This document shows positions 6,315 through 22,034 of a DNA stretch of 39,625 nucleotides, in pieces (position 1 is the stretch's first letter; each line of letters begins with the position of its first letter). Made by a program: the position numbers and the translations under genes. Source of the stretch: an uncultured Defluviitaleaceae bacterium (GTDB lineage Bacteria > Bacillota > Clostridia > Lachnospirales > WRAX01); NCBI GenBank assembly GCA_964449985.1, contig CAYVCG010000008.1:7805-47429 (forward strand), given 5' to 3'. The notes under the pieces were generated by a model. It was given only the letters and a program-made list of their open reading frames with translations. It was not told the DNA's origin and did no database searches.

Positions 6315-7487
6315 TTAAATCTCATTTTCTCGATATTTTTCCTTAAAGCGTCCTAAAACGTCTTTAAGTATAACCTGATATTCCTTTATCCTACCCATGG
6401 ATTTTTTTATTCTTGCATTTTCTAAACCCGCCTTCTCATTGGATGGCGATAGATCAAGCGCTTTGATTATTGCGCTGTTTGCCCGTGTCAAATCATAATC
6501 CATACGATAATACCTAGCAAGCCTTGTCCAGAGATCAACGCTGTTTTTATCCTGCATAAGTGCTTTTTCTATACAGCGTATTGCCGCAGGGATATTGTTG
6601 TAAGCAACATACACTTCTGCCTGTTTTTTAAGCAAATACTTGTCCTTGCAAGCGATTTTATCCAGTGTTTCAAGAGCCTTGTCATAAAATCTAAGCTTTA
6701 GATATACGTCGCAAAGCCTATACATATATTCCCATCTCTGAGTACTTGTCTCGGCAGCTTCAACAGCTCTTTCAAAATATGATATTGCTTCAAAATATCG
6801 CCCCGAGGAAAACACTAACTCACCATACATATAATAAACATCGCCTGCTTCTCCGTAATGCAGTTTTATCGTTTCGATTATTTTGTTAACACTGTCAAAA
6901 TCCTTATTAAGCAAATGCGCCTCAGCAATATGCAGCAAAAGCTTGTAGTCATGCGGCATCATGCCAAGCGCACGATTCAAGTATTCGATTGCTTCGCTAT
7001 AGCGCTCCATCTTTAGAAGCGTTATGGCAATGTTGTTAAGAAGTTGGGGATTTTCGCCATGTTCCAAGGCTTTTTTGTAATAGCTGTATGCTTTTTCCTC
7101 ATCGCCGTTATTGATGAGGTAGTCTCCGCGTTCCTTTAGTTTTTCCCATTCCTTGCGGTTTTCCCAAAGAGCTATTTCCTTGCGCAAATTCTCTATCTGT
7201 TCATTTGAAAAATAATCTATTAACGACAGAAATTGCGAAAGTTTACGGCTAAGGCTGGGAAAACCGCTTAAATCCTTAATCTTTGCTGCGATAAAGGAAA
7301 GCTTAAGCGCCCGGCTCACCCAGTCTATAAATTCGTCACACATAAAGTCGTCCACCGATTGCTTCCAATAATGGTAGCAATGATAAACAGCCTCTTCAAA
7401 CGAATATACGTTTACATTTGTCATCTTAAATCTATACGGCTTTGAAACCATATCCTGCGACATGCAGAGCAACATATTGGAAGCCAT
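6315..7487 (-). CDS. Tetratricopeptide-repeat (TPR) protein, last gene of the multi-Hsp70 operon
   Basis: Repeated 34-aa TPR-like units (GDEEKAYSYYKKALE, ERYSEAIEYLNRAL, GRYFEAISYFERAVE, RFYDKALETLDKI, NNIPAAIRCIEKAL, YDLTRANSAIIKALDLSP). The start is 42 nt downstream of the Hsp70-vWA stop. Confidence 0.85.
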   Translation of the reverse strand: MASNMLLCMSQDMVSKPYRFKMTNVNVYSFEEAVYHCYHYWKQSVDDFMCDEFIDWVSRALKLSFIAAKIKDLSGFPSLSRKLSQFLSLIDYFSNEQIENLRKEIALWENRKEWEKLKERGDYLINNGDEEKAYSYYKKALEHGENPQLLNNIAITLLKMERYSEAIEYLNRALGMMPHDYKLLLHIAEAHLLNKDFDSVNKIIETIKLHYGEAGDVYYMYGELVFSSGRYFEAISYFERAVEAAETSTQRWEYMYRLCDVYLKLRFYDKALETLDKIACKDKYLLKKQAEVYVAYNNIPAAIRCIEKALMQDKNSVDLWTRLARYYRMDYDLTRANSAIIKALDLSPSNEKAGLENARIKKSMGRIKEYQVILKDVLGRFKEKYRENEI

Positions 7488-7529: not shown

Positions 7530-9608
7530 TTACAGCCTTATAAGCTCGGCTATGCTCATCGCTATATTGTCCAAAATATCATAGAACTTATCATTTAAAT
7601 CATAATATTTGCCGCTAGGCTTTGTCAACGGGTCATAAGCTTCTATGCTTTCTCTATCTTTTCTGGCCACAACGTATGTGGTGACGTTATTATCCATAAG
7701 CATATCACAAATATCTGCAACGTGCCTTCCGCTGTTTGTCGGAACATGAGGCGGCGCATCAGTTATTAGGATAAACATATTTTTCGTATCCGGCTCTGCG
7801 CCTTTGGAACGAAGCAAATCCACGCCGGTTTCCAGCGCATCCAAGGATGATTCCGGTATATCTCCTCCGTATGTCCTTGGTATATTTTTAACCTGCTTCT
7901 GGAACTTTTCTATGTCATCGGTAAAGTTATAAACGCTCGGCTTTTCCTTTTCGTTTAAATCTCCAAAGCCGATAAGCCCCAGCTTATAACCTGCTCCCTT
8001 GGAGTTTAGTATGTTGGAAAACTCTATCGCCCTGTCTTTAACGCCGTTTATATACGTATCCATACTGCCAGTTGTGTCTATAAGGAATACGATATTTACT
8101 TTGCCGCCCATTACTTTCATTTCTTCCCTCGGCGGCGGAGCAGATGTCTTTGTTCTGTCAAACTCTGCCCTTTCAGTTCTGCCTGTTTCCAAATCCTTAA
8201 CATAAACCTCAAACAGATTGTTTTCGTCTATAGCATAAGTTATCTCCAACTGAGTTGTGCCTTTAAGCCCTGTAAACGTTACGCTTCCGATATATTTTCT
8301 TTCAGCTTCATGGCCATCTTCCCATTGATAAACGTCTACGCTGACCATCGTAGCGCCAGACATACTGGCAAAGTTTGCATCGGAAAAGCTGCTGGGGATT
8401 GGGCTGCCCATCGGTATAATTGGTATAAGCCCGCGCTCCATCGTAGAGATATTAGTAACCGCTTCCGTTCCGAATATTTGGCGCGTTATCTGCCCTACCT
8501 TAACGTTGCTGTTTGGCAAATGTATCAAATAATTGTATATAGCGGCGCCCATGGCAACGCTTTTTGCAGGGTCTGTCGCACGGTACGGCTCTTTTAATAA
8601 TCCTGCCACCATACGTTTTACCATAGGTATAAGCGTTGAACCGCCAACAAGAATTACCTTTGAGATTTCATCAGCATCCTTGCCGGAGCGTTTTAACGCC
8701 TCCTCGACTATATCACGGCTTCTATCCACATACTTGCGGATCATCGCTTCAAATTCTTCTCGGGTTATCTCAAGAGATAAATTTTTCGGAACACCTTCAT
8801 GGATAATAAGCGGATGTATACGAACGGCTACTTTATTCGTGCCGGATAACTTTTTCTTTGTTTGTTCCGCTTCCTGCTTTAGCTTTTGGATGACGCGTTT
8901 CCGTTCGGAATTCTCAAGCGAATCCAAATCAATGTCATGCTGGGCTTTAAACTGCTCCTTCATCCATTTTATCAGCTCCGAATCAAAATCGTCGCCGCCA
9001 AGGCTCATATCGCCCACGTCGGACAATTCCTGAAAAATCTCCTGATCGTTTTCATCTTTAGAAACCTTTAAAACGCAAGCATCAAACGTTCCACCGCCAA
9101 GGTCATAAACCAAAAGCGTCTGGGCATAGCTCTGTTTAAAGCCGTATTCAATCGCTGCCGCCAAAGGCTCTGATAACAAATAAACCGTTTTAAAGCCGGC
9201 CATAAGCCCCGCTTGCTTTGTTGCAAAAATCTGCCTATCGTTAAAATATGCAGGATGGGTTATAACAACCTCGTCGAAAGTCTCCCCAGCTTGTTCCTCT
9301 GCCGCGGTTTTAAGCCGCTTTAAAATCTCAGAGCTTATTTCCTCAGGTGTTTTCTCCAGCTCACCTATGTTTATTTTTTCGCTGGAGCCCATAAAACGTT
9401 TGATAGAAATAACCGTGGTTTCCGGGTATATGATAGCGCCGGATTTCGCTTCGTTGCCCACAATAACGCCATCATTCGTATAGCTGACAACGCTGGGCAG
9501 AATTTCATCTGTCCCGTCAATTTTAACAACCTCCAGGCTGTCCTTTTTATCGTTATAAATAATCGCTACTGAGTTTGTTGTTCCCAGGTCTATGCCTAAG
9601 TAAGCCAA
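7530..9608 (-). CDS. Hsp70 (NBD plus beta-sandwich SBD) fused to a C-terminal von Willebrand factor A domain
   Basis: Hsp70 motifs GIDLGTTNS, LLVYDLGGGTFDACVL and ILVGGSTLIPMV. SBD-beta strand TQLEITYAIDENNLFEVYVKD. Then comes a short PPP linker and a vWA domain with MIDAS-type NIVFLIDTTGSMD (DTTGS at 8064-8078) and FILITDAPPH. I prefer the TTG start at 9608 (GGGGAGGG SD 5 nt upstream); the track start at 9722 would overlap the upstream gene by 77 nt. Confidence 0.88.
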   Translation of the reverse strand: MAYLGIDLGTTNSVAIIYNDKKDSLEVVKIDGTDEILPSVVSYTNDGVIVGNEAKSGAIIYPETTVISIKRFMGSSEKINIGELEKTPEEISSEILKRLKTAAEEQAGETFDEVVITHPAYFNDRQIFATKQAGLMAGFKTVYLLSEPLAAAIEYGFKQSYAQTLLVYDLGGGTFDACVLKVSKDENDQEIFQELSDVGDMSLGGDDFDSELIKWMKEQFKAQHDIDLDSLENSERKRVIQKLKQEAEQTKKKLSGTNKVAVRIHPLIIHEGVPKNLSLEITREEFEAMIRKYVDRSRDIVEEALKRSGKDADEISKVILVGGSTLIPMVKRMVAGLLKEPYRATDPAKSVAMGAAIYNYLIHLPNSNVKVGQITRQIFGTEAVTNISTMERGLIPIIPMGSPIPSSFSDANFASMSGATMVSVDVYQWEDGHEAERKYIGSVTFTGLKGTTQLEITYAIDENNLFEVYVKDLETGRTERAEFDRTKTSAPPPREEMKVMGGKVNIVFLIDTTGSMDTYINGVKDRAIEFSNILNSKGAGYKLGLIGFGDLNEKEKPSVYNFTDDIEKFQKQVKNIPRTYGGDIPESSLDALETGVDLLRSKGAEPDTKNMFILITDAPPHVPTNSGRHVADICDMLMDNNVTTYVVARKDRESIEAYDPLTKPSGKYYDLNDKFYDILDNIAMSIAELIRL

Positions 9609-9645
9609 AACGCCCTCCCCTTTCGTGTATGTGATTAACCAAAAT

Positions 9646-11283
9646 CTATGATATAATCGTCTTTTTAAACCTATCCGGCGCAAAGTTTTGTTTAAACCCG
9701 CTCGGTGCAATTTCCTCGACAAAGCCCAAATCCTCTACCATGCCTTTAACCAGACCGCCGTCTTCTTCCGCCATAAGCGTTATTTTAAGCTTAGTCTTTC
9801 CGCTTGGTCGCTCTGGCAAGCCCTTTATCTCAACATCGCCGATAAGCTTGCAGTTTTCAAAGCTGTCTTCTTTATCAATGCGCTCTAAAATTCTTAAATC
9901 AAACTCCGTCATATCGCTTGGCTTGTCTCCAGACAATGTAAATATAGAGTTTTTCTTAGCCAAAGCATAGGGTGTGCCACGCCTTATCATCGTGAAAAAT
10001 GATTTCCTTACTCCATTAGTAACTTCTAAGCCAATATCATGCGGAACAGTTACCTCAAATTCAACGGACATTTTTTCCGTTTCCATTTCCGGCTGGGATA
10101 AAAGCCCCATTTTCATAGCGGCGTAATACGTAGCACCGAGGGATATATCCAACGCCGGGCGTTCCGACGTATAAATCTTAGTTTCGTCATTGAATATGCC
10201 GATAAGCATATCCTTCACCCACGGCATTTGTGATGAACCGCCCTCCAAAAGCACCCTGTCTATATTATCAGGTATGAGCGCGCCTGTATACGTTTCCCGC
10301 AAGGCTTTTAATACAAGCTTTCTCGTCTTTTCTATAAAATCACCGATAAGCTCCTCAAACTGGTCTCTAGTTATGTTTTCAACAAAAGGCGGGATGCAAA
10401 ACGTAAACGGGATACGGAAGCTTTTAACCCCGGATAGTCGCTCCTTTGCTTCTCTGGCACGCAAGGCAAGCTCTATTTGGTTTTCTATTGATATGTCTTC
10501 ACGTTCCTGCCCTGTTTTGTTTTTTATGAACTCAAAGCATTTGTTCATCAAAACGTCATCTATATTATCGCCGCCATGATAAGCTTCTCCGCCCTCGCTT
10601 ATTACTTGCAGTTTAACATGTTTATCGGTTTTTTCTAACACATGGAATATCGTTATATCCAGCGTTCCGCCGCCGAAATCAAACACCATGATTTTTTCGC
10701 CATCACTTAGCTGATGCCGGAAGTTATAAGCCAAAGCAGCAGCCTTTGGTTCTTCTATAAGGCAAATGAGATTATCCGAAAGCCCGGCTATTTCACAAGC
10801 CCGCATCGTGGCTTTTTTCGCCGCATCATCAAAGTCATACGGCACGGAAACCACAAGCCCGGCTATCTCCGCTTTTGGGTTTAGCCCTTGGCAATGCTCC
10901 ACAAGCTCACAAAGTATCTTTGCCGAAATATCCTCAGGCAAATATGCCTTGCCGTCTATTATTATCGTTTCATTCGTTCCCATTTTGCGCTTAATAGAGC
11001 GCACAGTTGTTTCCGGATAAATCTTAATGGAACGGTATGCTTCTTCACCGATAACCCATTCGCCGCCGGATGGTTCGTCCTCATCTTTTCTGTATTGAAC
11101 AACAGAAGGCAAGGGCACCTTTCCAAAGCCGTTGCTTATATCTATCGGCTCGCATCTTTTGCCCGTATTGTCCCAATAGCTGATTATGGAGTTGGTCGTG
11201 CCTAGGTCTATGCCAAGGATATACCACTCTTCCGGCAGGGAACCTTTTTCTTCAATACTCCGTTTATATTCCTCCCAATTCAT
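9646..11283 (-). CDS. Hsp70-family ATPase, lidless paralogue
   Basis: GIDLGTTNSIISYW, IMVFDFGGGTLDITIF, LLEGGSSQMPWV. C-terminal SBD-beta (GLPERPSGKTKLKITLMAEEDGGLVKGMVEDLG) with no helical lid. 545 aa. Confidence 0.9.
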   Translation of the reverse strand: MNWEEYKRSIEEKGSLPEEWYILGIDLGTTNSIISYWDNTGKRCEPIDISNGFGKVPLPSVVQYRKDEDEPSGGEWVIGEEAYRSIKIYPETTVRSIKRKMGTNETIIIDGKAYLPEDISAKILCELVEHCQGLNPKAEIAGLVVSVPYDFDDAAKKATMRACEIAGLSDNLICLIEEPKAAALAYNFRHQLSDGEKIMVFDFGGGTLDITIFHVLEKTDKHVKLQVISEGGEAYHGGDNIDDVLMNKCFEFIKNKTGQEREDISIENQIELALRAREAKERLSGVKSFRIPFTFCIPPFVENITRDQFEELIGDFIEKTRKLVLKALRETYTGALIPDNIDRVLLEGGSSQMPWVKDMLIGIFNDETKIYTSERPALDISLGATYYAAMKMGLLSQPEMETEKMSVEFEVTVPHDIGLEVTNGVRKSFFTMIRRGTPYALAKKNSIFTLSGDKPSDMTEFDLRILERIDKEDSFENCKLIGDVEIKGLPERPSGKTKLKITLMAEEDGGLVKGMVEDLGFVEEIAPSGFKQNFAPDRFKKTIIS

Positions 11284-11306: not shown

Positions 11307-12884
11307 TCAAACAATGGACTCAGTATCAAACACAAACTCACGCTCATAATCCGATGATGGGAACAACTCCCCAAAGCCTAAATCCCGCACCTTCGCCTTT
11401 ATAACATTACTACCGGAAAATCCGATGGATATGGAAAGCCTCGTTACCCCGGCAGGCCTATCCGGCAAACCATCCAACGCTAGGCTCTTAATCGGCGTCA
11501 TTGTGCCGGATTTATCCCTTTTAAACATTTGTATATGAGCCGCAGGGCTTGTTGGCTCTGTAAGTATAAACTGCTTCGGGGGATGAGTTTGCCACCAAAA
11601 TGTACTACTCTCAACAATCGGGGTAAAACGCTCCCTGTTGTCCCGCAGTATTTTAAATCCAATGTCATAATCAATCCTGTTTTTATCCTTTATCAAGAAC
11701 TTTTTGCCGGAAAACGCACAAAGCTCCGTTGCAGCGGCAACGCTTGCACCCTCGGCTGTAACACCTTTTGGATTTTTATAAATTGCTATTTCCGATTCAG
11801 GGAATGCTTCTGAAACAACCTCTCTGGCCCATAACATCTCGAAACCGCCTCCGACGCAAATAACAGACGATATATCTTTAATATCGATACGTTTGCCATC
11901 AGATGTTTTGCGAGCCTCCATCAAAAAAGCCTCAACGCATTCCTTTAATGGACCGACAATCTCTTGCGCCATATCATGCGAAATACTTGCCTGAAACGGG
12001 GGATAAGCAAAATTGTAATAAATTTTAAGCGGCTTCGACTTTATATCCTTTCTAAACAACAAATCCTTATGCTGATACGAAAATATTTCAAGCTGTTCCC
12101 TTTGCCGCTGATCAAGCCGCTCTGGCGGTATATTAAAATGCCCGCAGTATATGTTCTGAAACATTTGAGAAACAACTTCATCAACAATATCTGTTCCTAG
12201 CGATTTATCAAACAAAAATGAACGACAGTCCACACTGACATTTCCATCATCTTCGGGGCAAATATCATAAACACCAGCCCTTAATTCTCTTGCGCCAAAA
12301 TCTATTATCATTACTGTTTCTTTTTTTATAGCTCTATCAAAATAAAACCTGTTTAAAACACATTCCCTATCATCCAAAAAACCGAGCAACGGCTTTTCAT
12401 AACCTGCACTCTTTAAAACCGCCGAAAGCTCGGCTTCGGCCTCCTTGCCCAAATAAGCAGGAACACTAACAGCAATCCCTGCTATCTCTGCCTTAGGATT
12501 TATATTTTTGCAGTTTCCGACGAGCTCTTTTATATACAAGCCCAAAATGGATGTAACACTAACAGGCTTTCCGGAAACATCAACATACTCACCCAACCCC
12601 AGCTTTTGAACCAACGACAGAATCGTTATATCTTTGCTCCCAGAGCGATTGGCCATGGCATATTCCCCAAAAACCCATTCCTTAGTATCCGCAACATATT
12701 GCATAACCGTTGGAACAGAAGGCTTTCCATAGCCGCCGGATATATCAATAATCTCAGGGGCGCTTTGATTAAGATCAAAATAAGCGATAGCAGACGTTGC
12801 GCTTCCGATATCAAGGCCAAGGATAAAATAATTCTCTTGCCTTATGCCGTTTTTAAACAGCTCCGTAAACTTTCGCCTGCTCAT
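11307..12884 (-). CDS. Hsp70-like protein with degenerate nucleotide-binding motifs (predicted pseudo-ATPase)
   Basis: Same overall layout, including SBD-beta (GLPDRPAGVTRLSISIGFSGSNVIKAKVRDLG). Phosphate-1 reads GLDIGSATSA instead of DLGTTNS. Phosphate-2 reads IIDFGARELRAGVY instead of DxGGGTxD. The adenosine motif reads CVGGGFEMLW. Confidence 0.8.
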   Translation of the reverse strand: MSRRKFTELFKNGIRQENYFILGLDIGSATSAIAYFDLNQSAPEIIDISGGYGKPSVPTVMQYVADTKEWVFGEYAMANRSGSKDITILSLVQKLGLGEYVDVSGKPVSVTSILGLYIKELVGNCKNINPKAEIAGIAVSVPAYLGKEAEAELSAVLKSAGYEKPLLGFLDDRECVLNRFYFDRAIKKETVMIIDFGARELRAGVYDICPEDDGNVSVDCRSFLFDKSLGTDIVDEVVSQMFQNIYCGHFNIPPERLDQRQREQLEIFSYQHKDLLFRKDIKSKPLKIYYNFAYPPFQASISHDMAQEIVGPLKECVEAFLMEARKTSDGKRIDIKDISSVICVGGGFEMLWAREVVSEAFPESEIAIYKNPKGVTAEGASVAAATELCAFSGKKFLIKDKNRIDYDIGFKILRDNRERFTPIVESSTFWWQTHPPKQFILTEPTSPAAHIQMFKRDKSGTMTPIKSLALDGLPDRPAGVTRLSISIGFSGSNVIKAKVRDLGFGELFPSSDYEREFVFDTESIV

Positions 12885-12910: not shown

Positions 12911-14848
12911 CTATCTTGCAGCGATAACATTTGCTCTTATCAAAACCCTTTCGCCGCTTTTATAACCCCGGTTCATAAGCTTTATAATCTCGCCTTTTTT
13001 ATAATCTTCGTTTTTCTCCGCCATAAGCACCTCATGTTCCTTTGCATTAAACATATCATGGGCCACAGGCGCTATTGGCGTTATGCCGTTTATTTTCAAT
13101 ATATTGTCAAGCTCTGCCGCCTTATTATAAATAAAATCAGCAAAACCCGATACATTTTCGTCTTCGCTCGCTTTTAACAGCGAAACCGAATAATTCATAA
13201 TCTCTTCAAAAGTGGACATTTCAAATAAAACGTAATCTTTTACAAAACCGTCAGTCTTTTTGACCACTTCGTCGATCTTTCTTTCATATGCCTTTTTCTG
13301 CTTTTCCTTATGCTCCAAAGCCAAATCACAGTTTTCTATATCAGCAAGCATACGTCGAATAACAAATGAACCGCGCCTATCATCTCTTGAAAGTGCAGCA
13401 AGCCGCAAAACAAGCTCTCCCATGCATTGACTAGCCTGGTTTTTTATCTCGCTCTTTTGCGTATCACTTATGGCCAATTCATCATTTTCCTTAGAATAGC
13501 TGACATGGGCATACGCATCAGACTCTGCCTTAAATTCGTTTTTGTTTTCATCAATGCTTTGGATCTTTATAGCAACCGTCTCTGCCACACCCGTTATTAT
13601 CTCAGCTTTTTCGCTGGATGTAAGCGCTTTATTAATATCCTCTTCGTTATAATAATCTAATATGGATTTAAACACGCCGTTCATCTCATCAGCCATAACA
13701 ATGGCATGAGAAAACACCTTTTTTATTTCATAATATTGTTTTATCGAATTATTTTTCTTTACAATCCGCTCCAACGTGTTTATTATCTCTTTTTCCATAT
13801 GCTTGCAAAAATCATCCATACGGCCTTCCAGAGAAAGCGCAAACCCTTCAAATACAGAAATCTTTATAAAAGAAACACCACTGGTATGAGAAAGAAGGCT
13901 TTCCGAAAACTGCTCGCGGCTTTGAGCAAGGCTTGTCTGCCCTTCATCCGCCTTGCTTTCCCGCGCGGCCTTTAGCCTTGATATTATATCAGCAGTTTCT
14001 TTGCCATATCGCTGATAAGCTTCTCTAAGAAGATACAGCATCTGTCTTATAATCGAAACTGTGCTTTCATTCTCGATTCCGTTTTCCAAATAGCTTTCCA
14101 AAACCCCTGCCTGAACCTTTATTATTGCACCCAATATCTGGTATTCTTCGTTTAGCATAGTGATATAATGATCAACGGACTTTCTTTTCTCAAGGTCATT
14201 TATATCTGTCACGGCTCTTTCGGTTGTATTGCAATAAATAGCATAAAATTCCTCAAAGCAATTCTTTTCTATGCATGAACCCATAAGATTAATAAGCTCT
14301 ATACCGTTGCTCAAATCAACAGACTGCAAAAACAAACGCCTCGCATGATACACAACGTCTTTTTGCTTTTCCATCTTAAATTTATAACAGACGGAATCAA
14401 AGGCCTTGTCAAAAGATTTTAAAGCCTTGGCTATAATCTCTCTTTTTTCAATGGAAACCGGATTTGAGCCATCCGCTTGTGGGCGCTCTTCAAAAGCTTT
14501 TAGGCGTGATACGATTATAGAATAAAGCCCGTCATAAATATTCTTTATTTGTATATCAGAAAACTCCAATGGATTTTCCTCATAAACACTTACAGCGGAT
14601 GCATAACAGCCCATAAGCTTACAATAATAATCATAAATACTTTCGTCATAAGCGCTTAGCTTTGAATCAGACATGGATGCCGAATATATTTTATCGCTAA
14701 TAACCTTTTTAATAAGGCGCAATAACTCGTCAAGGCTATCCGCCGCATAATCATCAATAAATGCGGCGGCGGCGTTCCATTTTTTTAATATTAAATTTTC
14801 AGCACTACCGGCATTCCTTGCCCTAACGGACGACTTTGCCATTTCCAC
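12911..14848 (-). CDS. Large helical protein with a C-terminal GrpE-like nucleotide-exchange domain
   Basis: The last ~110 aa (about 12914-13250) match the GrpE four-helix/beta-domain pattern: INGITPIAPV.HDMFNAKEHEVLMAEKNEDYKKGEIIKLMNRGYKSGERVLIRANVIAAR (compare GrpE G.e.i...G..FDP..HEAv...e.....v..v...GY....rvlRpA.V.V). The preceding ~530 aa have no counterpart in ~190-aa housekeeping GrpE. The start is GTG 14848 or ATG 14842. Confidence 0.75.
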   Translation of the reverse strand: MEMAKSSVRARNAGSAENLILKKWNAAAAFIDDYAADSLDELLRLIKKVISDKIYSASMSDSKLSAYDESIYDYYCKLMGCYASAVSVYEENPLEFSDIQIKNIYDGLYSIIVSRLKAFEERPQADGSNPVSIEKREIIAKALKSFDKAFDSVCYKFKMEKQKDVVYHARRLFLQSVDLSNGIELINLMGSCIEKNCFEEFYAIYCNTTERAVTDINDLEKRKSVDHYITMLNEEYQILGAIIKVQAGVLESYLENGIENESTVSIIRQMLYLLREAYQRYGKETADIISRLKAARESKADEGQTSLAQSREQFSESLLSHTSGVSFIKISVFEGFALSLEGRMDDFCKHMEKEIINTLERIVKKNNSIKQYYEIKKVFSHAIVMADEMNGVFKSILDYYNEEDINKALTSSEKAEIITGVAETVAIKIQSIDENKNEFKAESDAYAHVSYSKENDELAISDTQKSEIKNQASQCMGELVLRLAALSRDDRRGSFVIRRMLADIENCDLALEHKEKQKKAYERKIDEVVKKTDGFVKDYVLFEMSTFEEIMNYSVSLLKASEDENVSGFADFIYNKAAELDNILKINGITPIAPVAHDMFNAKEHEVLMAEKNEDYKKGEIIKLMNRGYKSGERVLIRANVIAAR

Positions 14849-14909
14849 AATTCCCCTTGCTTATGTTTTGCAACCGCTTATTAATTCAATTCTAACTAAA
14901 TCAGTCGCT

Positions 14910-16589
14910 TTATGAATACAGTTCATCAACGGAAAGCTCCGTTGTTACGCCGTCAAGGCTTGTGCTCTTTGCCATAACTTTAAGCATATTGTCTTGGCTA
15001 ATATGAAAAACAATCTTGACCTTTTCCTGACCCTTAGGCCCTTGCGGGATGCCGCGCAAAGATGTACCAGCAAGGCGTTTCATTCCCTCTTGGTTTACGA
15101 ACTCTGTCTTGCCGTCTAGCGCTGGTATCGCGTTTTCATAAACAACTATAGCCATGCTCGTTACATTATCAAAATTAGTCGTCAAAAGCTCATCTGCTTC
15201 AATCGTAAGGCCATCCTTAGGGATATCCAATCCCTGAGACACTATCTTCATGAACCGTCTTCCTGCGATTTCTAGCCCAAGCGGATGGATCGTCTTTTCA
15301 TGGACAACCGGCCCTTTAACAGTCGGCATCATTATCATATTACAATAATACGCCGCTCCTTGGGATATGCTAAGCGCAGGGCTTATCTTAGATTTAAACG
15401 GCTCTTTGCCAAACTTTTCGGATATTCTTTCGCCAACTGAGTTTATAGACGAACTGCCTCCAACAAGGAATATCTCGTCAACCTCGTCTGCCTTTATATT
15501 GGCAGCCTGCAAACAGTTGTCAATACATGAAAGGGTAATTTCGATAATATCGTTTAATGTTTTGCCGTTAAATTTATCAAAAATCTCCGGCTTATCACCA
15601 AGCTGGTTTACGCGGGCATGATTCATAAAATCTTCCCTTGTTATTTCCATATTTATGTTTATAATCTTTGGCTCTTGAATAAACGGAGCAAGCGTTACCT
15701 TCGTGCTCTTAGCCTGAGAAAGGCGTTCTTTTGCCTGATTTGCCACCTGCTGCAAACGCACCAAAGCGACCTTCTTTTGGCGTTTAGAAACACCGTCATC
15801 AACATCTTCATTAAAAAGGTCTATCTCATTATTAGTGAGCTTTTTAAACTCCTCATAAATCATATCCATAATGATTTTGTCTATATCATTACCGCCAAGG
15901 TCATTATCGCCATATGTGCTTAATATGGAGATACTCGGTTCATTAGCTTCGTCCGCCTTTATTTGGAGAATGCAAGCATCAAATGTTCCGCCGCCGAAGT
16001 CATAAACCAAAACCTTTTTGTCGCTTGTCTCGTTTATCGCATAGCTTATTGCGGCAGCTGCCGGCTCTAGCCTCAAATATATATTTTCTTCATCAAAACC
16101 GGCCAAAAGAGCAGCCTGCTTTGTCATTTGCTTTTGCTTGTCCGTAGAGTTTGCAGGAACGGTTATAACACAGCCGGAAAATTCTCCGGAAATATTAAGC
16201 TCCTCTTGAGCATATTCATCAGCCTTTTGCTTTAAATAACCCAAAATCTCGCCGGCAATCTGCTCCGGCGTAAAAACATGCTCTGCCTCGTCCACAACAA
16301 CAGTTATCTTTTCATCAGATCCGAGAAGTCTTTTTATAGACAAAACGGTGCTTTGGGGGTAAATAATGGCAGCTTCTTTAGCCTGAACTCCAAATATTCT
16401 GGAAAGCTTCTTTTCATCCTCCGGATCGGTTTCAAACTGGATAGCCGTTGGGAAGATGTTGCTACCGTCGATGGGTATGGTTTGCGCCTCACCGTCTTTA
16501 AAATTATAAATGCTGACGACAGAGTTTGTCGTTCCAAAATCAATACCGAGATACAGGCCTCTTTCCAAATCAAGCCCTAGCGTTCCCAT
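14910..16589 (-). CDS. Hsp70-family ATPase, lidless paralogue
   Basis: GIDFGTTNSVVSIY, VLVYDFGGGTFDACIL, FLVGGSSSINSV. SBD-beta (HPLGLEI..., GIPQGPKGQEKVKIVFHISQDNMLKVMAKS). The protein ends 20 aa after the last beta strand. AAGGAGGG SD. Confidence 0.9.
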   Translation of the reverse strand: MGTLGLDLERGLYLGIDFGTTNSVVSIYNFKDGEAQTIPIDGSNIFPTAIQFETDPEDEKKLSRIFGVQAKEAAIIYPQSTVLSIKRLLGSDEKITVVVDEAEHVFTPEQIAGEILGYLKQKADEYAQEELNISGEFSGCVITVPANSTDKQKQMTKQAALLAGFDEENIYLRLEPAAAAISYAINETSDKKVLVYDFGGGTFDACILQIKADEANEPSISILSTYGDNDLGGNDIDKIIMDMIYEEFKKLTNNEIDLFNEDVDDGVSKRQKKVALVRLQQVANQAKERLSQAKSTKVTLAPFIQEPKIININMEITREDFMNHARVNQLGDKPEIFDKFNGKTLNDIIEITLSCIDNCLQAANIKADEVDEIFLVGGSSSINSVGERISEKFGKEPFKSKISPALSISQGAAYYCNMIMMPTVKGPVVHEKTIHPLGLEIAGRRFMKIVSQGLDIPKDGLTIEADELLTTNFDNVTSMAIVVYENAIPALDGKTEFVNQEGMKRLAGTSLRGIPQGPKGQEKVKIVFHISQDNMLKVMAKSTSLDGVTTELSVDELYS

Positions 16590-16622: not shown

Positions 16623-19319
16623 CTATAAAATCCAGCTCTTAATACGCGGCTTTTCCCTAAGCTTTTCTGTAATTATGCCCTCAACCATATCATATTTAAA
16701 CAGGCGTTCATAAATAAGGGCGTTGTTAATAACAAAAAAAGAATCATCTTTTATTTCAGACAGTTTCATATCAGAATTCTCAACAACACTTTGCTTGGAA
16801 ACGATGCTGCCCGTTTCCATTTCTTCACTGAAATAATACGTTATTTTTTCACCGTAAAAATGCGTCACATGGGCAAAATACAGCCCAAACCTTAAATAAC
16901 GCATCCTTTTGCTCCGAAACTCGGGCTCGTTGTCTGTTTTGTAATAAAGCTTTATTATTTTATCAGGAAAACCATGGTATATAAAAGGCTGATTCTTTTC
17001 TATATACGCACTTGTGAATTTTTTGTCTTTTATATGTTTTAATACCGGGAAAATAAAGGCGTCGTCTTCGCATAGCTTCACAGCTTGTTTTATAATCTCA
17101 TCAGACTTAAACGTTGTTATGCCATACCGTGCATATACATGGCAAAGAGCGTATGCAATAAAGCTATCTCCGCTTCCAAAGAACATCCTTTCCATAATTT
17201 CAATCGTTTCATATTCCGGCTTTATATTGTTTATTATTATTTCATAAACGCAAAAAGCAACAAATTCCTCAACAAGCGTATTTTTCGAGTTCATCTCAAA
17301 CATACGTTGGAACACCTTTTGAGAACCTTTATCCATCTGGTGCATAACTATTGCATTTTTAAGAATTATTTCGTCAAGCCCTTGCTCTGCGATAGACATA
17401 TGCGACAGCGCACGGCTTAGCTCTTGCCATTCTTCCTGGCTTCCACGATAGTGGGAAAATATGATTTCCACAAGCGTTTTGTCATACCAGCTTTTTAAGA
17501 CAAGCTCATATGCAACGTTTGCAATGTCTCTATCATAAATATTCTTCACAGCGATTTGTTTAAGCGCATAGAATAGATTTCTGTCAGATATACATTCGGC
17601 TTTTTTAACTATAAGGCTGACAGCTTTTTTATAATCATTCGCATTTATATAAGCTATAAGCATTTGCTCTATATAATTATCATTAAGTTTATTTTCATCA
17701 ACATCCTTATAATACGAAACGGCTTTTGAATAAGCTCCTAAAGATGCATAATAATTCCCTGTTGCTGCACTAATGAGCATCTTAAATGATGCAGACAAGT
17801 CCGCCCTTGCCACAGCAAGCTTAAAAACCCCAATGCTCTCCTCCGGCAAAACCTCCAGCGACATATAGTGCTTTGAAAGCGCGACTATAAGCTCTGGGCT
17901 TGTCATGCCTTTCCCAAAAAAACGTTTATATAGCTCGATATCTGCATTCTCCACAAGCCTCACAGCTGTATACGGCGTTTCTACCAAAGACCTCTGGTCA
18001 GAATCCAAAAACCAACAGGAAAAGCTGGGGCCAGAAGCAATTATAACCTTCGACTTGCCGGTAATGGCATATTTATTCATGTCCCTCCGCTCCGGCTCAG
18101 ACACCCAAATATACTTTGCACTGTCGTTTTCAATAAGAACCCTGAATTTAAACAAATCCTCCCACAAAATCTTTTCTGCCAAGTCCATAAGGCTTTTATC
18201 AGAAGCAGTAACAGCTTCTGATAGATAAAACCTGTAAATACTGTTATAATACCTGCCTGATTCACCCTTTTTTAAGCTTTCAACCGCAAAATCAATAATC
18301 CTGTCTTTATATGCATCAAGCAATTCAAAATTCTTTGGCTTTGTTATTACAAGATGATACGCAAACGGAAGCAGCATAGCCTCCAAATATCCGGTTTTAA
18401 AAAACATATCCAGTGTATAACGGCTTATGTTTTCAACATTGTTATTTGCGGCGGATTTTATAAGCATGTTATAAATATTCGGCAGTTCAATCTGTTTTAG
18501 CTCTGCTTCTTTATAAAAATAAAATGCCGATGACGAATAATCCATCCGCTCCATAAGAGCAGAACAAATACTAGCCAAAACCTCATCATGAGGATACAGC
18601 CTATAAACCTCTTCCACAAGCTTTGGATAAACATTAAAATAAGCCGCCATTGCATATTTAAATTTAAAAACAGCTTCAGAAATATCAAGCTTTTTATTAA
18701 GCGCCCATCTCACGAACCCAAAAAACATCCCGTCATCCACTTTAGAAACGTCTACCGGGGCGTTATTAAAACAATCAAGAAGATATGCAAACATCATTGC
18801 GCTTCGTTCGCCTTTTGCATAAGCCTTCGCAAACAGTAATACAGCTCCGTTATAATCACCATATTCATAAGCTGATACCGCCATAAGCATATCAAACAAT
18901 CCGTTATGGGTATTATCACGAAAATCATTCATGGTTTTCTGCTGTTTCTCAAAAGCGCGGATTTTACCAAGGCGTATGTTATAAAACCCATTAAGAAACG
19001 TATACAGCATAAACCTCTGTGGTTCGTTATTTTTAAAATAGTTTTTGCTGCCTTTTAGAAGATCAAGCAACTGCTTTGCATTATCGAAATTTTCCATCTC
19101 TATGCTAAGAAAGACATCGATGAAATAATGATCAAAACATGCAAAATTTGTTTTGAACACAGAACGGTTTATATGATATCCCTTATAAAGATGGGCTTTA
19201 TCACCCTGAGCCTTATACAAAAGCCAACAGCGCATAGCGACGGCAATAGCGCTCTCGCTTGATTTGTCTATATTAAATTTTTGCTCTATATCATCCAATT
19301 TGTTTTGCAGAACATCCAT
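16623..19319 (-). CDS. 898-aa alpha-helical repeat (TPR-like) protein with a beta-rich C-terminal ~130 aa, function unknown
   Basis: Clean ORF with GGAGG SD. Recurrent TPR-like helices (GDYNGAVLLFAKAYAKGE, GAYSKAVSYYKDVDE, NDYKKAVSLIVKKAE). No enzymatic motif recognised. Sits 33 nt upstream of the first Hsp70. Confidence 0.7.
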   Translation of the reverse strand: MDVLQNKLDDIEQKFNIDKSSESAIAVAMRCWLLYKAQGDKAHLYKGYHINRSVFKTNFACFDHYFIDVFLSIEMENFDNAKQLLDLLKGSKNYFKNNEPQRFMLYTFLNGFYNIRLGKIRAFEKQQKTMNDFRDNTHNGLFDMLMAVSAYEYGDYNGAVLLFAKAYAKGERSAMMFAYLLDCFNNAPVDVSKVDDGMFFGFVRWALNKKLDISEAVFKFKYAMAAYFNVYPKLVEEVYRLYPHDEVLASICSALMERMDYSSSAFYFYKEAELKQIELPNIYNMLIKSAANNNVENISRYTLDMFFKTGYLEAMLLPFAYHLVITKPKNFELLDAYKDRIIDFAVESLKKGESGRYYNSIYRFYLSEAVTASDKSLMDLAEKILWEDLFKFRVLIENDSAKYIWVSEPERRDMNKYAITGKSKVIIASGPSFSCWFLDSDQRSLVETPYTAVRLVENADIELYKRFFGKGMTSPELIVALSKHYMSLEVLPEESIGVFKLAVARADLSASFKMLISAATGNYYASLGAYSKAVSYYKDVDENKLNDNYIEQMLIAYINANDYKKAVSLIVKKAECISDRNLFYALKQIAVKNIYDRDIANVAYELVLKSWYDKTLVEIIFSHYRGSQEEWQELSRALSHMSIAEQGLDEIILKNAIVMHQMDKGSQKVFQRMFEMNSKNTLVEEFVAFCVYEIIINNIKPEYETIEIMERMFFGSGDSFIAYALCHVYARYGITTFKSDEIIKQAVKLCEDDAFIFPVLKHIKDKKFTSAYIEKNQPFIYHGFPDKIIKLYYKTDNEPEFRSKRMRYLRFGLYFAHVTHFYGEKITYYFSEEMETGSIVSKQSVVENSDMKLSEIKDDSFFVINNALIYERLFKYDMVEGIITEKLREKPRIKSWIL

Positions 19320-19347
19320 GCATTTGCCTCCGGGCGGTTACAGCGTT

Positions 19348-20568
19348 TTACGCTTCAAAATATAAGCCTCCGATAAAAACTTTTAACACCTTTTTAAACG
19401 GCTTTTCATCAACATACGCTTTTACGGTTATAAATGTTTCTAAAACAGGCTGTTTTTTTAGCGCGAATTGCGCTGCCGCCAGCCCTGTTAGCCGGACAGA
19501 AAACGGTATCTCTGCATAACCACTCACCAAATACCGCTTTCCCTCAAACTTTATGAAAGTATCCTCCGCCAAAACCTCCAGCATCATATCTTTAAACGTA
19601 TTGTTAATAACGATTATTCTTCCCATGTCTTCAAAACCAAATGACTGGCGGGATAAAGACAAATCAAGCGGATTCTCTTTGCACACATTAACGAATATAT
19701 TCGTATTAGTGTTAACGAGCCTTAACGTTGCTGATGCAAATTTTTGCCGCAAAAGATTCGGATAAATAATATAGCTTGCTTCAAAAAAACCCGCCTCGTC
19801 AAAATCCGCTGCTGTTATACTATCAGTCATAAGCTTTATCCACGGAGTATCTTTCGAGTTTATAATTTCAATCCGCTCATCAAGATAGCCCCAGCCTTTA
19901 AGCCTGAGCGGTATAACGCCTGTTACGGCGTCTGTTTCTGCCGGCCTTATCCTTGTTGACAATCTGTTTTCAATGACGGATATTTCGGCCTTGTTTTTTA
20001 GGCCATTTAATACAAGAAAATTATCAATCGCCCGTTCTTTGTTCGGATCTCTGGCAAAATGCTCATACATATCCATATGCTCATAATTCATGCTTAACAG
20101 CCACATCAAAAATTCCTTCTGCGAAAACAGCTTCCGTGATTCTACAGGGCTTTTCTTTACATAAAGCAAAAAGTCTTTAAGGGTGCCCAACCGGCTTCCA
20201 TCTTTTGCTATAACGGCTGGTGGGATAATTTTTATTAAAACAGGGATTATTGCCTCTCCGCCGTTTGATGTTATTAATGCGCTTGTATGGATTGTATCGC
20301 CTTTTTTATAAATGTCCAAATTAAATCTATATGTTATTTTAATATTATTTCCACGAAATTCCGTCGGAGAAAATTCCAGCCCATGGGAGTTGGAGGTTAT
20401 TGTTCCAAAAAGCTCACCCCCGCCTATATTGGACACACAAAATCCACCCTCAAAGCACTCCGATGTCTCGATGGATATATTATCGGTATCGACTTGTATT
20501 ACAGGCAAAGGGTATTCAAATTGTTTTAGTATATCCGATTTTTTATTATCAACTTGTTTTATATCCAT
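19348..20568 (-). CDS. 406-aa protein of unknown function with an N-terminal Ig-like/beta-sandwich signature
   Basis: Clean ORF with AAGAAGG SD. The N-terminal segment FEGGFCVSNIGGGELFGTITSNSHGLEFSPTEFRGNNIKITYRF resembles PapD/ASH-type beta-sandwich modules. No signal peptide or TM segment seen. Confidence 0.65.
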   Translation of the reverse strand: MDIKQVDNKKSDILKQFEYPLPVIQVDTDNISIETSECFEGGFCVSNIGGGELFGTITSNSHGLEFSPTEFRGNNIKITYRFNLDIYKKGDTIHTSALITSNGGEAIIPVLIKIIPPAVIAKDGSRLGTLKDFLLYVKKSPVESRKLFSQKEFLMWLLSMNYEHMDMYEHFARDPNKERAIDNFLVLNGLKNKAEISVIENRLSTRIRPAETDAVTGVIPLRLKGWGYLDERIEIINSKDTPWIKLMTDSITAADFDEAGFFEASYIIYPNLLRQKFASATLRLVNTNTNIFVNVCKENPLDLSLSRQSFGFEDMGRIIVINNTFKDMMLEVLAEDTFIKFEGKRYLVSGYAEIPFSVRLTGLAAAQFALKKQPVLETFITVKAYVDEKPFKKVLKVFIGGLYFEA

Positions 20569-20612
20569 ATGAAAAACCTTCTTTTAAAAAACAAACGTTT
20601 GTACCCAAGGCA

Positions 20613-21962
20613 TTATCGACCAAGCATCTTGAAGTTCATATCCATTTGCTCTTTTATGCTCATTATTGCATTCATTTCAGACCTGCTTTGCTCTTGCATT
20701 TGGGCAAACACGCTTTGCAGCCGTTCGATAAGCTCTGAGTTGGATTTTATAATTGAATCAAGATTTTGGCGCAAAGATTCATTTATGCCATTATAAGCCT
20801 CTTGCACCTGAAAATCAATTATCCTGCCCATTCCTTCGCCAATCTGCGATGTTATTTCTTTCAATGTCAGCTCGTATTGCTGCAAACTGTTCTCTAAAGC
20901 AATTTGGTTCGTTTTTAAATATTTGAGCTGCTGCTCGACTTCATCGTTTCTTGCCATATAGTTCGAATTACTGGTATACAAGGCATCCGCCGTCTTCTCC
21001 AGGCTTGCTACCTGTTTTGAAAGAGATGAAAAATAATCACCCATGCTGCCAGACATCTTCGCAAACCCACCATCAACAATATTTGATAGCTTCTCAACGC
21101 CCTGAATGGATACGTTTAGCGAAGCAAGCGTCTTGTTAAAGTTATCCTGCCCTTTGACAGCTTCATTGATTGTATCGCGCCATTTTTTAATAGGCTCATC
21201 CAATATTTCTTTATGATTTAACACAGATGTCATAGCGTTTTCAACGTTTTCTGTCATTGCCGCCATGGATTTTCCCATCGCCTCTCCAAGCTCAGTGCCC
21301 AGCATACTTATGGTCTCTCTAAGGCCGGACGTTTGCGCCTGAATAGAATTCTTTATATCCACCCTAAGCAGATTAATAGCCGAAACAGGATCCTTACCAA
21401 AAAACTTGTTGATTTCTATTTCCATAAAGTTGGACATTTCGAAAACTATCTTGCTTTCAACAGCTGTATAATCCAAGAATAAGCCAACAACCTTTATGAC
21501 GACAAACAAAAATACGCAAATCGCAGCTACGGTAGCTTTTTCATTCACCGTTAGCGTTAAAATAATCCCTATTAGGAGTATGCTTTTTTCAAACGTGTCC
21601 AAAACACCTTTATAGCTTTTTAAGTTAAGCAAAAGAAAGCGCGATCTTCCCAACTGCCGCTCAACAACATCTCTGGGAGACAGATGAACAACACCTTTTT
21701 CCACAACGGAAACGTAAAACTTAACGACCTTGCTGAAAAACCCAAATTTTATATTTTCTAATTCCTTTTTTTCGTTAATCTCTTTAGACTGCAACAAATA
21801 TGTGGCATAAATATTCTGATAAGCGATGAATAACGCGATTCTAAAGATAAGAGCCAAAAGAGAAACGCCTATAAGGCATTGCAGCCCCATCTGAGCGCCA
21901 TAGTCATATATCCCTATTGATGTATAAAACTCTGTATAAAATACCGGTATTTGAAATGGCAT
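20613..21962 (-). CDS. 449-aa membrane-anchored coiled-coil protein, first gene of the operon
   Basis: About three hydrophobic helices (LQCLIGVSLLALIFRIALFIA; ILLIGIILTLTV; VAAICVFLFVVIKVVGLFL). These are followed by ~270 aa of heptad-like, Q/E/S/N-rich helical sequence. GGAGG SD 7 nt upstream of the ATG. Confidence 0.75.
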   Translation of the reverse strand: MPFQIPVFYTEFYTSIGIYDYGAQMGLQCLIGVSLLALIFRIALFIAYQNIYATYLLQSKEINEKKELENIKFGFFSKVVKFYVSVVEKGVVHLSPRDVVERQLGRSRFLLLNLKSYKGVLDTFEKSILLIGIILTLTVNEKATVAAICVFLFVVIKVVGLFLDYTAVESKIVFEMSNFMEIEINKFFGKDPVSAINLLRVDIKNSIQAQTSGLRETISMLGTELGEAMGKSMAAMTENVENAMTSVLNHKEILDEPIKKWRDTINEAVKGQDNFNKTLASLNVSIQGVEKLSNIVDGGFAKMSGSMGDYFSSLSKQVASLEKTADALYTSNSNYMARNDEVEQQLKYLKTNQIALENSLQQYELTLKEITSQIGEGMGRIIDFQVQEAYNGINESLRQNLDSIIKSNSELIERLQSVFAQMQEQSRSEMNAIMSIKEQMDMNFKMLGR

Positions 21963-22005: not shown

Positions 22006-22034
22006 ATTATACCATCTTTAATTAATGCTGTATA
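22006..22034 (-). promoter_or_regulatory. Predicted sigma-A promoter of the multi-Hsp70 operon (extended -10)
   Basis: The minus strand reads TATACA, then 17 nt, then TGgTATAAT. The -10 is at 22006-22011, the TG at 22013-22014 and the -35 at 22029-22034. It lies ~45 nt upstream of the ATG at 21962. Confidence 0.55.

Follow-up and report, generated by a model that had tools for sequence, protein, structure and literature searches.

The window analysed here, a stretch of 39,625 nucleotides (nt) from an uncultured Defluviitaleaceae bacterium (contig CAYVCG010000008.1, positions 7,805 to 47,429), carries on its minus strand a gene for a GrpE-like protein about three times the size of ordinary GrpE (12911..14848, with the stop codon at 12911-12913; taken from the list of open reading frames and its translation). 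Our analysis showed that the C-terminus of this giant GrpE is a genuine GrpE module, that the protein is an extra paralogue present beside a normal GrpE, and that it is restricted to one order of anaerobic Clostridia, where it is found only together with an operon that encodes lidless Hsp70 paralogues and no J-protein. We consider it probable that giant GrpE is a second, specialised exchange factor serving the active lidless Hsp70s of that operon (Hsp70A, Hsp70C and Hsp70D-vWA) and not the housekeeping DnaK.

An initial reading of the gene from its sequence alone (hereafter the sequence-only reading) had given the product a length of 645 aa. This is indeed the length of the open reading frame (ORF) if the GTG codon at 14848 is used, an ATG codon at 14842 yielding 643 aa instead. 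The Shine-Dalgarno sequence, AAGGGGA (14852..14858, minus strand), lies 9 nt 5′ of the ATG and only 3 nt 5′ of the GTG. Because of this spacing, and because the public gene call for the gene also has 643 aa, the ATG is most likely the start. Residue numbers below follow the 643-aa product; those of the sequence-only reading are higher by two. The two strings by which that reading had recognised a GrpE β-domain, G-I-T-P-I-A-P-V-A-H-D-M-F-N-A-K-E-H-E-V and G-Y-K-S-G-E-R-V-L-I-R-A-N-V, were found at residues 586-605 and 626-639, respectively.

The resemblance of the C-terminus to GrpE, originally proposed for the last ~110 aa, was upheld by Pfam, hhalign, a profile search of the Protein Data Bank (PDB) and Foldseek; its extent proved larger, ~130 aa in the Pfam match and ~185 aa in the fold. 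The Pfam GrpE family (PF01025) matched residues 509-640 (12923..13318, minus strand; profile positions 34-162 of 165) with a score of 50.3 bits and an E value of 2.8e-13, the gathering cut-off being 25.8. The same family was matched by 29 of 30 members of the giant family, and its cut-off was exceeded by all 20 giant copies in other genomes. A canonical GrpE profile was built from 14 sequences, 13 GrpEs of the same order and that of E. coli, which was checked against known residue names. Alignment of the family C-terminus to this profile with hhalign gave a probability of 96.2% and an E value of 2.2e-9 over 81 columns, pairing residues 560-641 of giant GrpE with residues 112-192 of the E. coli protein. 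When a profile of the last 189 aa was used to search the PDB, five distinct sequences were matched, all of them GrpE, with E values of 4.4e-7 for 4ANI, 1.8e-4 to 4.1e-4 for GrpEL1 and 1e-3 for 1DKG (chain residues 37-194). A single-sequence phmmer search of the PDB gave no GrpE match, a family profile being required; the relationship is therefore remote. Ten of the NCBIfam GrpE equivalog models (PRK14140-PRK14161) matched, all far below cut-off, the best reaching 28.3 bits for a cut-off of 266. On sequence grounds, giant GrpE classes as a remote member of the GrpE family and not as an orthologue of the housekeeping GrpE.

A model of the whole protein was computed with AlphaFold2 from a 30-sequence alignment and had a mean predicted local distance difference test (pLDDT) score of 87.6; the C-terminal 189 aa, modelled as a separate piece, scored 89.9. 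The GrpE-fold module delimited by the model, Foldseek and the PDB profile search spans residues 455-643 (12914..13480, minus strand). It comprises two shorter helices, followed by a 52-residue stalk/bundle helix (residues 506-557), a second bundle helix (562-584) and a six-stranded β-wing (587-642). In Foldseek comparisons with the PDB, the whole model found exclusively GrpE chains at ranks 1-10, and the module alone found GrpE at all of ranks 1-12 (E 2e-9 to 3e-3, probability 1.00), the matches including the proteins of E. coli, Geobacillus kaustophilus, T. thermophilus and M. tuberculosis as well as human GrpEL1. The next fold, not a GrpE, followed at an E value of 1.5, corresponding to a 500-fold gap. 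Template modelling scores (TM-scores) of the module against GrpE were moderate, 0.35-0.52 when normalised to the query and 0.39-0.60 when normalised to the target, presumably because the angle between stalk and β-wing is variable. Thus, both the profile match and the structure match to GrpE, on whose absence the sequence-only reading would have been abandoned, were found to be significant.

The β-wing (residues 585-643; 12914..13090, minus strand, as defined from column conservation, the family alignment and hhalign) is the best conserved part of the family. Column conservation reaches 0.6-0.8 in this part as against 0.2-0.5 elsewhere, and the family signature reads PHDxFNxKEHEVLMAEKxEGFKKGEIIKxMNSGY....VIxRANVIAAK. 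The residues through which E. coli GrpE contacts DnaK are F86, G122, P151, M174, R183 and V192. In the hhalign pairing, the equivalents of H154 and M174 are retained, and the equivalent of R183 is an Arg in this protein and variable across the family. G122, P151 and V192 align with F570, A600 and A641, and F86 falls outside the aligned stretch.

The remainder of the protein is an all-helical N-terminal region (residues 1-454; 13481..14842, minus strand), defined from the AlphaFold2 model, Pfam, hhalign and Foldseek. The protein thus departs from the standard GrpE architecture of ~180-220 aa with a short disordered N-terminus, having 643 aa and a folded helical N-terminal region. Since the GrpE-like part is larger than first thought, the region measures ~455-505 aa, not ~530 aa; residues up to about 505 may also fall outside the GrpE module. 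Its description as helical was borne out by DSSP analysis of the model, which assigned helices only, mostly 23-52 residues long and predicted with high confidence. The description as charged was not, with K+R amounting to 13% and D+E to 16% of the residues, hydrophobic residues to 34%, and a net charge of -15 over 505 aa; this is the composition of a folded domain as opposed to a charged coiled coil. The sequence-only reading had recognised no motif in this region and none emerged here. No Pfam family was common to the N-terminal regions of the 30 members scanned, no internal repeats were detected on cross-comparing five blocks by hhalign (all probabilities <19%), comparison with each of the other operon proteins and with the DnaK lid revealed no similarity (probabilities not above 1%), and Foldseek gave no significant structural neighbour (non-GrpE matches at E > 0.4). 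The region diverges faster than the GrpE module (mean p-distance 0.79 versus 0.59), with conserved islands at residues 66-70 (DE.IY), 127-133 (NP...EK), 274-277 (E.YQ) and 415-426 (II.G..ET..IK). A match to PilZN (20.6 bits, below cut-off) was found in this member only and was set aside as a chance occurrence; ZorA, MakB, apolipophorin, BAR/eisosome proteins and designed helical bundles, found at E values of 0.07 to 3, were discarded as noise from helical composition.

A canonical GrpE is encoded elsewhere in the source genome (157 bits, 212-aa ORF; contig C28, 215-691). All of the 20 other carrier genomes tested likewise have one (129-177 bits, ORFs of 177-225 aa), and 12 non-carrier genomes were found to have the canonical GrpE alone. 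The hrcA-grpE-dnaK-dnaJ context is absent for giant GrpE. In the source assembly, which is fragmented into 102 contigs, the canonical grpE lies on C28 and dnaK-dnaJ on C72. The housekeeping dnaK is severed by the end of contig C72 (7880-9809), with dnaJ just downstream, and the canonical grpE lies at the start of C28; the hrcA-grpE-dnaK-dnaJ locus was therefore probably broken by the assembly. The dnaJ gene adjoining dnaK is the sole J-domain gene found in this 91%-complete genome, and a Pfam scan of the nine operon proteins detected no J-domain. Likewise, a search for CIRCE/HrcA control found no CIRCE element in the window with up to 3 mismatches allowed.

The distribution of the family was assessed by searching 1.84 billion cluster representatives exhaustively with HMMER, using a profile of three full-length sequences. 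The search retrieved 354 relatives, 282 of them at E <= 1e-10 and 218 at E <= 1e-30; among the matches listed, most relatives were 500-680 aa long and the shorter entries resembled fragments. The small total suggests that ordinary GrpEs are not retrieved by the giant-family profile. A word-indexed homologue search returned only 3 matches. In a sample of 201 genomes from the order to which the window belongs, 92 matched and 89 carriers remained after removal of three weak or spurious cases. All 89 encode a full-length giant GrpE without stop codons, in ORFs of 560-680 aa that align end to end, closed genomes included. Screening of about 290 genomes belonging to the class but to other orders did not reveal the gene, nor did any plasmid or phage yield a copy. 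Carriers include Defluviitaleaceae, Epulonipiscium, Tyzzerella, Vallitaleaceae/Petrocella and Anaeropeptidivorans, many of them metagenome-assembled genomes from termite gut, rumen and digesters; Defluviitalea saccharophila, D. phaphyphila, Petrocella atlantisensis and Anaeropeptidivorans aminofermentans are culturable. The same giant GrpE sequence was also present in four separate metagenome runs of one study; the runs containing it were of DNA only. NCBI and IMG label the homologues 'nucleotide exchange factor GrpE', so that the domain call is already public; the literature searched contained no paper on the giant GrpE protein or its operon.

The giant GrpE gene belongs to a series of nine genes on the same strand, whose order recurs across many families of the order. 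The operon head (16623..21962, minus strand; Pfam and synteny) consists of genes for a membrane coiled-coil protein (20613-21962), a DUF5717_N protein (19348-20568) and a DUF5717 protein (16623-19319). Next come Hsp70A (14910..16589; Pfam HSP70 243 bits), which is lidless and has intact ATPase motifs as checked in 18 orthologues, and giant GrpE itself, followed on the same minus strand by Hsp70B (11307..12884), a degenerate protein of Hsp70 fold identified by DUF5716_C. Pfam and motif checks also defined Hsp70C (9646..11283), lidless with intact ATPase motifs and a GrpE-signature loop 6 residues shorter, and Hsp70D (7530..9722), which carries a fused vWA domain and again has intact ATPase motifs. 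A TPR protein (6315..7487; Pfam and synteny) is encoded by the last gene of the conserved operon. The sequence-only reading was thus correct in placing giant GrpE between an intact Hsp70 (upstream) and a degenerate one (downstream); neither of these neighbouring genes is in frame with the giant GrpE gene in the window. A search with the 30-sequence alignment provided 80 further loci, 74 of which had enough upstream flank. Hsp70B was the next operon gene downstream in 75 of the 80 loci and lay within 300 nt in 67, with a median gap of 10 nt; upstream, Hsp70A lay within 300 nt in 61 of the 74, the median gap being 23 nt.

In 16-19 orthologues each, Hsp70A, Hsp70C and Hsp70D retain D8, the GTTN loop, K70, E171, D194, the GGG-T199 loop, D201, K270, S274 and G341/G342. 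Hsp70B lacks K70, G197/G198/T199, D201, K270 and S274 in 20 homologues. By these motifs, Hsp70B is predicted to be an ATPase-dead pseudo-Hsp70, and Hsp70A, C and D to be ATPase-competent. All four paralogues terminate after the β-sandwich and are therefore lidless, and all four lack the lobe-I segment equivalent to DnaK 76-101. Identity between families amounts to 72-83% for the active Hsp70s, 24-41% for giant GrpE and 30-50% for Hsp70B. The operon as a whole falls into two sharply different rate classes, the active Hsp70s on the one hand and every other protein, at 23-50% identity, on the other. Hsp70A carries a ~20-residue insertion in lobe IIB and another insertion after it. For Hsp70D-vWA, the longest ORF, opened by a TTG codon, has a 77-nt overlap with Hsp70C; as its orthologues measure 691-699 aa and align from residue 39, the real start is probably at 9608.

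Some additional features of the operon were noted. A promoter-like sequence, TATACA-17-TATAAT with an extended TG, is found at 22006-22034 (minus strand), 44 nt 5′ of the first operon gene (start at 21962); it is a consensus match only. No convincing terminator is apparent within the operon. In some termite-gut relatives among the Defluviitaleaceae, small genes of the same strand are inserted between the Hsp70 genes of the operon (locus L031, 5949-6440, 10926-11684, 11760-12482 and 14547-15188; L021, 4332-5318 and 6976-7626; L033, 5895-6779 and 6815-7492). These genes encode two MBL-fold proteins, NUDIX hydrolases, an HD/HDOD protein, a SAM methyltransferase and an Mrr-type restriction endonuclease. 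In family f6 (G005, G038, G130, G138, G146) the operon is split, Hsp70A being located on a different contig from giant GrpE-Hsp70B(-Hsp70C-Hsp70D).

By analogy, we infer for giant GrpE Hsp70 binding, exchange activity, dimerisation, a choice of clients and a scaffold role. As in canonical GrpE, the C-terminal ~185 aa would dimerise via the stalk and the helical bundle, and the β-wing would insert between lobes IB and IIB of the nucleotide-binding domain (NBD) of an Hsp70 and cause the release of ADP. One or more of the active paralogues would be the clients, Hsp70D and Hsp70A being the best candidates. The folded helical region would take the place of the short disordered N-terminus of ordinary GrpE and most likely would anchor the factor in a larger assembly with the DUF5717 scaffold, pseudo-Hsp70B, the TPR protein and the membrane coiled-coil protein.

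The phyletic pattern is the clearest discriminator of the partner. Within the order sample, giant GrpE is accompanied by Hsp70A in 89 of 89 carriers, and the DUF5716_C pseudo-Hsp70 was found in 18 genomes, mostly from the large family f9, that have neither giant GrpE nor Hsp70A. Giant GrpE therefore tracks the active motors and not the pseudo-Hsp70 as such. Members of f9 (G008, G041, G061, G076 and others) encode full-length DUF5716_C proteins with strong scores of 225-358 bits, in ORFs mostly of 385-510 aa and in one case of 729 aa; their lack of giant GrpE and Hsp70A indicates that a reduced form of the system exists without active motors. The one-to-one co-occurrence with Hsp70A, the separate canonical GrpE that is kept and the fixed gene order with gaps of 10-23 nt support the proposal of the sequence-only reading that the factor is dedicated to the Hsp70s of the operon. 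As to the individual paralogues, Hsp70D-vWA keeps a GrpE-signature loop of DnaK length (GVPK versus TGPK) and the K55/E267 pair, and the loop of Hsp70A is similar in length to that of DnaK. Judged by the loop, the paralogues best suited to GrpE would seem to be Hsp70D and Hsp70A. After removal of the shared phylogenetic trend, distances of the C-domain correlate with those of the active NBDs with a partial r of 0.42-0.54 and with those of Hsp70B with a partial r of 0.24, and the N-domain tracks the scaffold proteins instead. The divergence of the N-domain correlates with that of the scaffold proteins at r 0.84-0.88. These rate correlations, suggestive only, favour the active NBDs as partners of the C-domain and the scaffold proteins as partners of the N-domain. 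Finally, the conservation of the β-wing is as expected if this part contacts motors that are 72-83% identical between families.

Several findings weigh against a role in exchange on the active paralogues. The giant family does not conserve the positions equivalent to canonical G122 and P151. The short GrpE-signature loop of Hsp70C is unfavourable, and the deletion of the DnaK 76-101 region, shared by all four paralogues, is typical of HscC (Mayer 2021, PMC8215388); the salt-bridge pairs of DnaK are mostly lost as well. HscA and HscC, the specialised bacterial Hsp70s, have lost GrpE dependence (Mayer 2021, PMC8215388). Mirror-tree correlations are 0.81-0.85 for all paralogues and do not discriminate between them. 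Moreover, the most faithful neighbour of giant GrpE is the ATPase-dead Hsp70B, even in split-operon loci, which also fits a non-catalytic partnership.

This last finding is the basis for a different explanation, in which giant GrpE and Hsp70B form a stable, largely non-catalytic complex that regulates or adapts the three active motors. A nucleotide-free Hsp70 NBD binds GrpE very tightly, and in yeast an atypical Hsp70, Ssz1, is the partner of the J-protein Zuo1 in the ribosome-associated complex (RAC), which controls an active Hsp70. The GrpE/Hsp70B pair is the most persistent unit of the operon, kept intact where Hsp70A is on another contig and standing alone in locus L026, and this persistence keeps a RAC-like stable complex under consideration. 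The immediate downstream position of Hsp70B in nearly all loci speaks in the same sense, as do the loss of the residues for ATP binding and hydrolysis in its 20 homologues and the fast evolution of both proteins (mean p-distance 0.59-0.79 for GrpE and 0.66 for Hsp70B, versus 0.25-0.28 for the active motors). We nevertheless hold such a complex to be rather unlikely, given that DUF5716_C occurs without giant GrpE in 18 genomes, that giant GrpE never occurs without Hsp70A, and that, of the residual rate correlations of the C-domain, the one with Hsp70B is the lowest. Lobe IIB of Hsp70B aligns too poorly to DnaK for a GrpE docking site to be judged, and the complex would be compatible with exchange activity on the other paralogues. 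In a bolder version, which we put forward as a conjecture with the odds against it, a permanent GrpE/Hsp70B complex would replace the J-protein on the DUF5717/TPR/membrane scaffold and gate the three lidless motors, the N-terminal region acting as a lid in trans or as a client platform. If this were true, the complex would represent a fourth prokaryotic Hsp70 system beside DnaK, HscA and HscC, one driven by an exchange factor and not by a J-domain.

The GrpE module might also bind the ordinary DnaK, with the N-terminal region tethering DnaK to the machine encoded by the operon. The only known targets of GrpE modules are Hsp70s of the DnaK type (Mayer 2021, PMC8215388) and the HscC-like NBD deletions in all four paralogues would agree with this, as would the presence of a single J-protein, DnaJ beside dnaK, which makes some cross-talk with the housekeeping system plausible. 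Against it, a canonical GrpE for DnaK is already available in each genome, the co-occurrence of giant GrpE with Hsp70A is perfect, and the β-wing signature of the giant family is invariant, its own and distinct from the canonical one. This distinct signature, together with the retrieval of only 354 relatives, argues for a binding partner other than DnaK, and we regard recruitment of DnaK as very unlikely. Hardly more can be said for the GrpE fold being kept solely as a dimerisation or packing module, devoid of Hsp70 binding or exchange. A helical domain other than GrpE makes up about three quarters of the protein, canonical G122 and P151 are lost and the equivalog scores are far below the cut-offs, all of which would suit a scaffold; yet the strongest conservation is in the β-wing, the part that contacts Hsp70 and not the part that dimerises, and the gene lies directly between Hsp70 genes in nearly all loci. 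That the gene is an artefact, either a miscalled or fused ORF or an assembly chimera of a short grpE with an unrelated upstream gene, is refuted by the uninterrupted ORFs in 89 genomes, closed ones included, by the 218 cluster representatives at E <= 1e-30 and by the identical sequence in four metagenome runs; its probability is negligible. Reading the operon as a defence system was rejected in view of the clade-wide chromosomal distribution, the lack of plasmid or phage copies and the outcome of a search of PADLOC-DB, in which giant GrpE had no match and its operon partners had weak partial matches only (14-38 bits).

In the current picture, GrpE is a protein of a single compact architecture that acts for DnaK alone, and HscA and HscC each have a J-protein of their own and do without an exchange factor (Mayer 2021, PMC8215388; PMC12987570). 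The giant GrpE family inverts this picture, in that specialised lidless Hsp70s lack a J-protein and possess a much larger GrpE of their own. If, as we consider probable, giant GrpE exchanges nucleotide on the motors, then factors of the GrpE type have been re-used outside the DnaK cycle. The operon would then offer a natural system for studying an Hsp70 cycle that proceeds without J-domain or lid, and the DUF5716/DUF5717 operon, common in Clostridia of termite gut, rumen and digesters, would gain its first mechanistic handle. Since culturable carriers exist, the question is directly testable.

Comparison with canonical GrpE, as represented by the E. coli (1DKG), Geobacillus kaustophilus (4ANI) and M. 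tuberculosis (8GB3) proteins and by mitochondrial GrpEL1 (9BLS, 9BLT), reveals a common fold over the C-terminal ~185 aa. At the profile level the motifs F-[DN]-x-x-x-H and G-Y...R-A-x-V are also common to both, and in either case the gene adjoins Hsp70 genes. However, a disordered N-terminus of 40-50 aa is part of the GrpE architecture conserved across kingdoms (2025 review, PMC12987570), whereas the giant form is three times longer and has in its place a folded helical region of ~455-505 aa. Further differences are that the giant form is a second copy, that it lies outside the hrcA-grpE-dnaK-dnaJ context and below equivalog cut-offs, and that it presumably acts with lidless Hsp70 paralogues and not with DnaK. 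Anabaena All4144 is also a bacterial GrpE homologue with an extra domain beyond the standard architecture; its GrpE is reported to be fused to a helix-turn-helix domain and to have DnaK as its partner (bioRxiv 10.1101/2025.04.14.648684). The extra domain of All4144 is small and DNA-binding, in contrast to the large unrecognised helical domain of giant GrpE with its multi-Hsp70 operon.

The nearest described accessory theme is found in the GAP1-N2 GTPase conflict systems, which comprise an accessory Hsp70 with its own GrpE, sometimes a second Hsp70 reduced to the NBD, and TPR and vWA proteins (Kaur, Burroughs, Iyer and Aravind 2020, PMC7159879). Both lie outside the housekeeping locus. The GAP1-N2 theme requires a TRAFAC GTPase as its core, however, and a Pfam scan detected no GTPase domain in the nine operon proteins or the flanking genes scanned. 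The distribution of giant GrpE also differs from that of conflict systems, being chromosomal and clade-wide with slowly evolving motors, not patchy, and without a PADLOC match. The constant giant-GrpE/Hsp70B gene pair resembles yeast Ssz1-Zuo1 in associating a degenerate Hsp70 with a co-chaperone; in yeast the co-chaperone is a J-protein and not a GrpE, no homology is implied, and a complex is hypothetical here. HscA-HscB and HscC-DjlB/DjlC each pair an Hsp70 with a J-protein dedicated to it and do not depend on an exchange factor (Mayer 2021, PMC8215388). Like the Hsp70s of the operon, these are dedicated, non-housekeeping systems, and the HscC-type deletion of DnaK 76-101 is common to both. 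The arrangement is reversed, however: where HscA and HscC have a private J-protein and no exchange factor, the giant GrpE operon has a dedicated GrpE and no J-protein.

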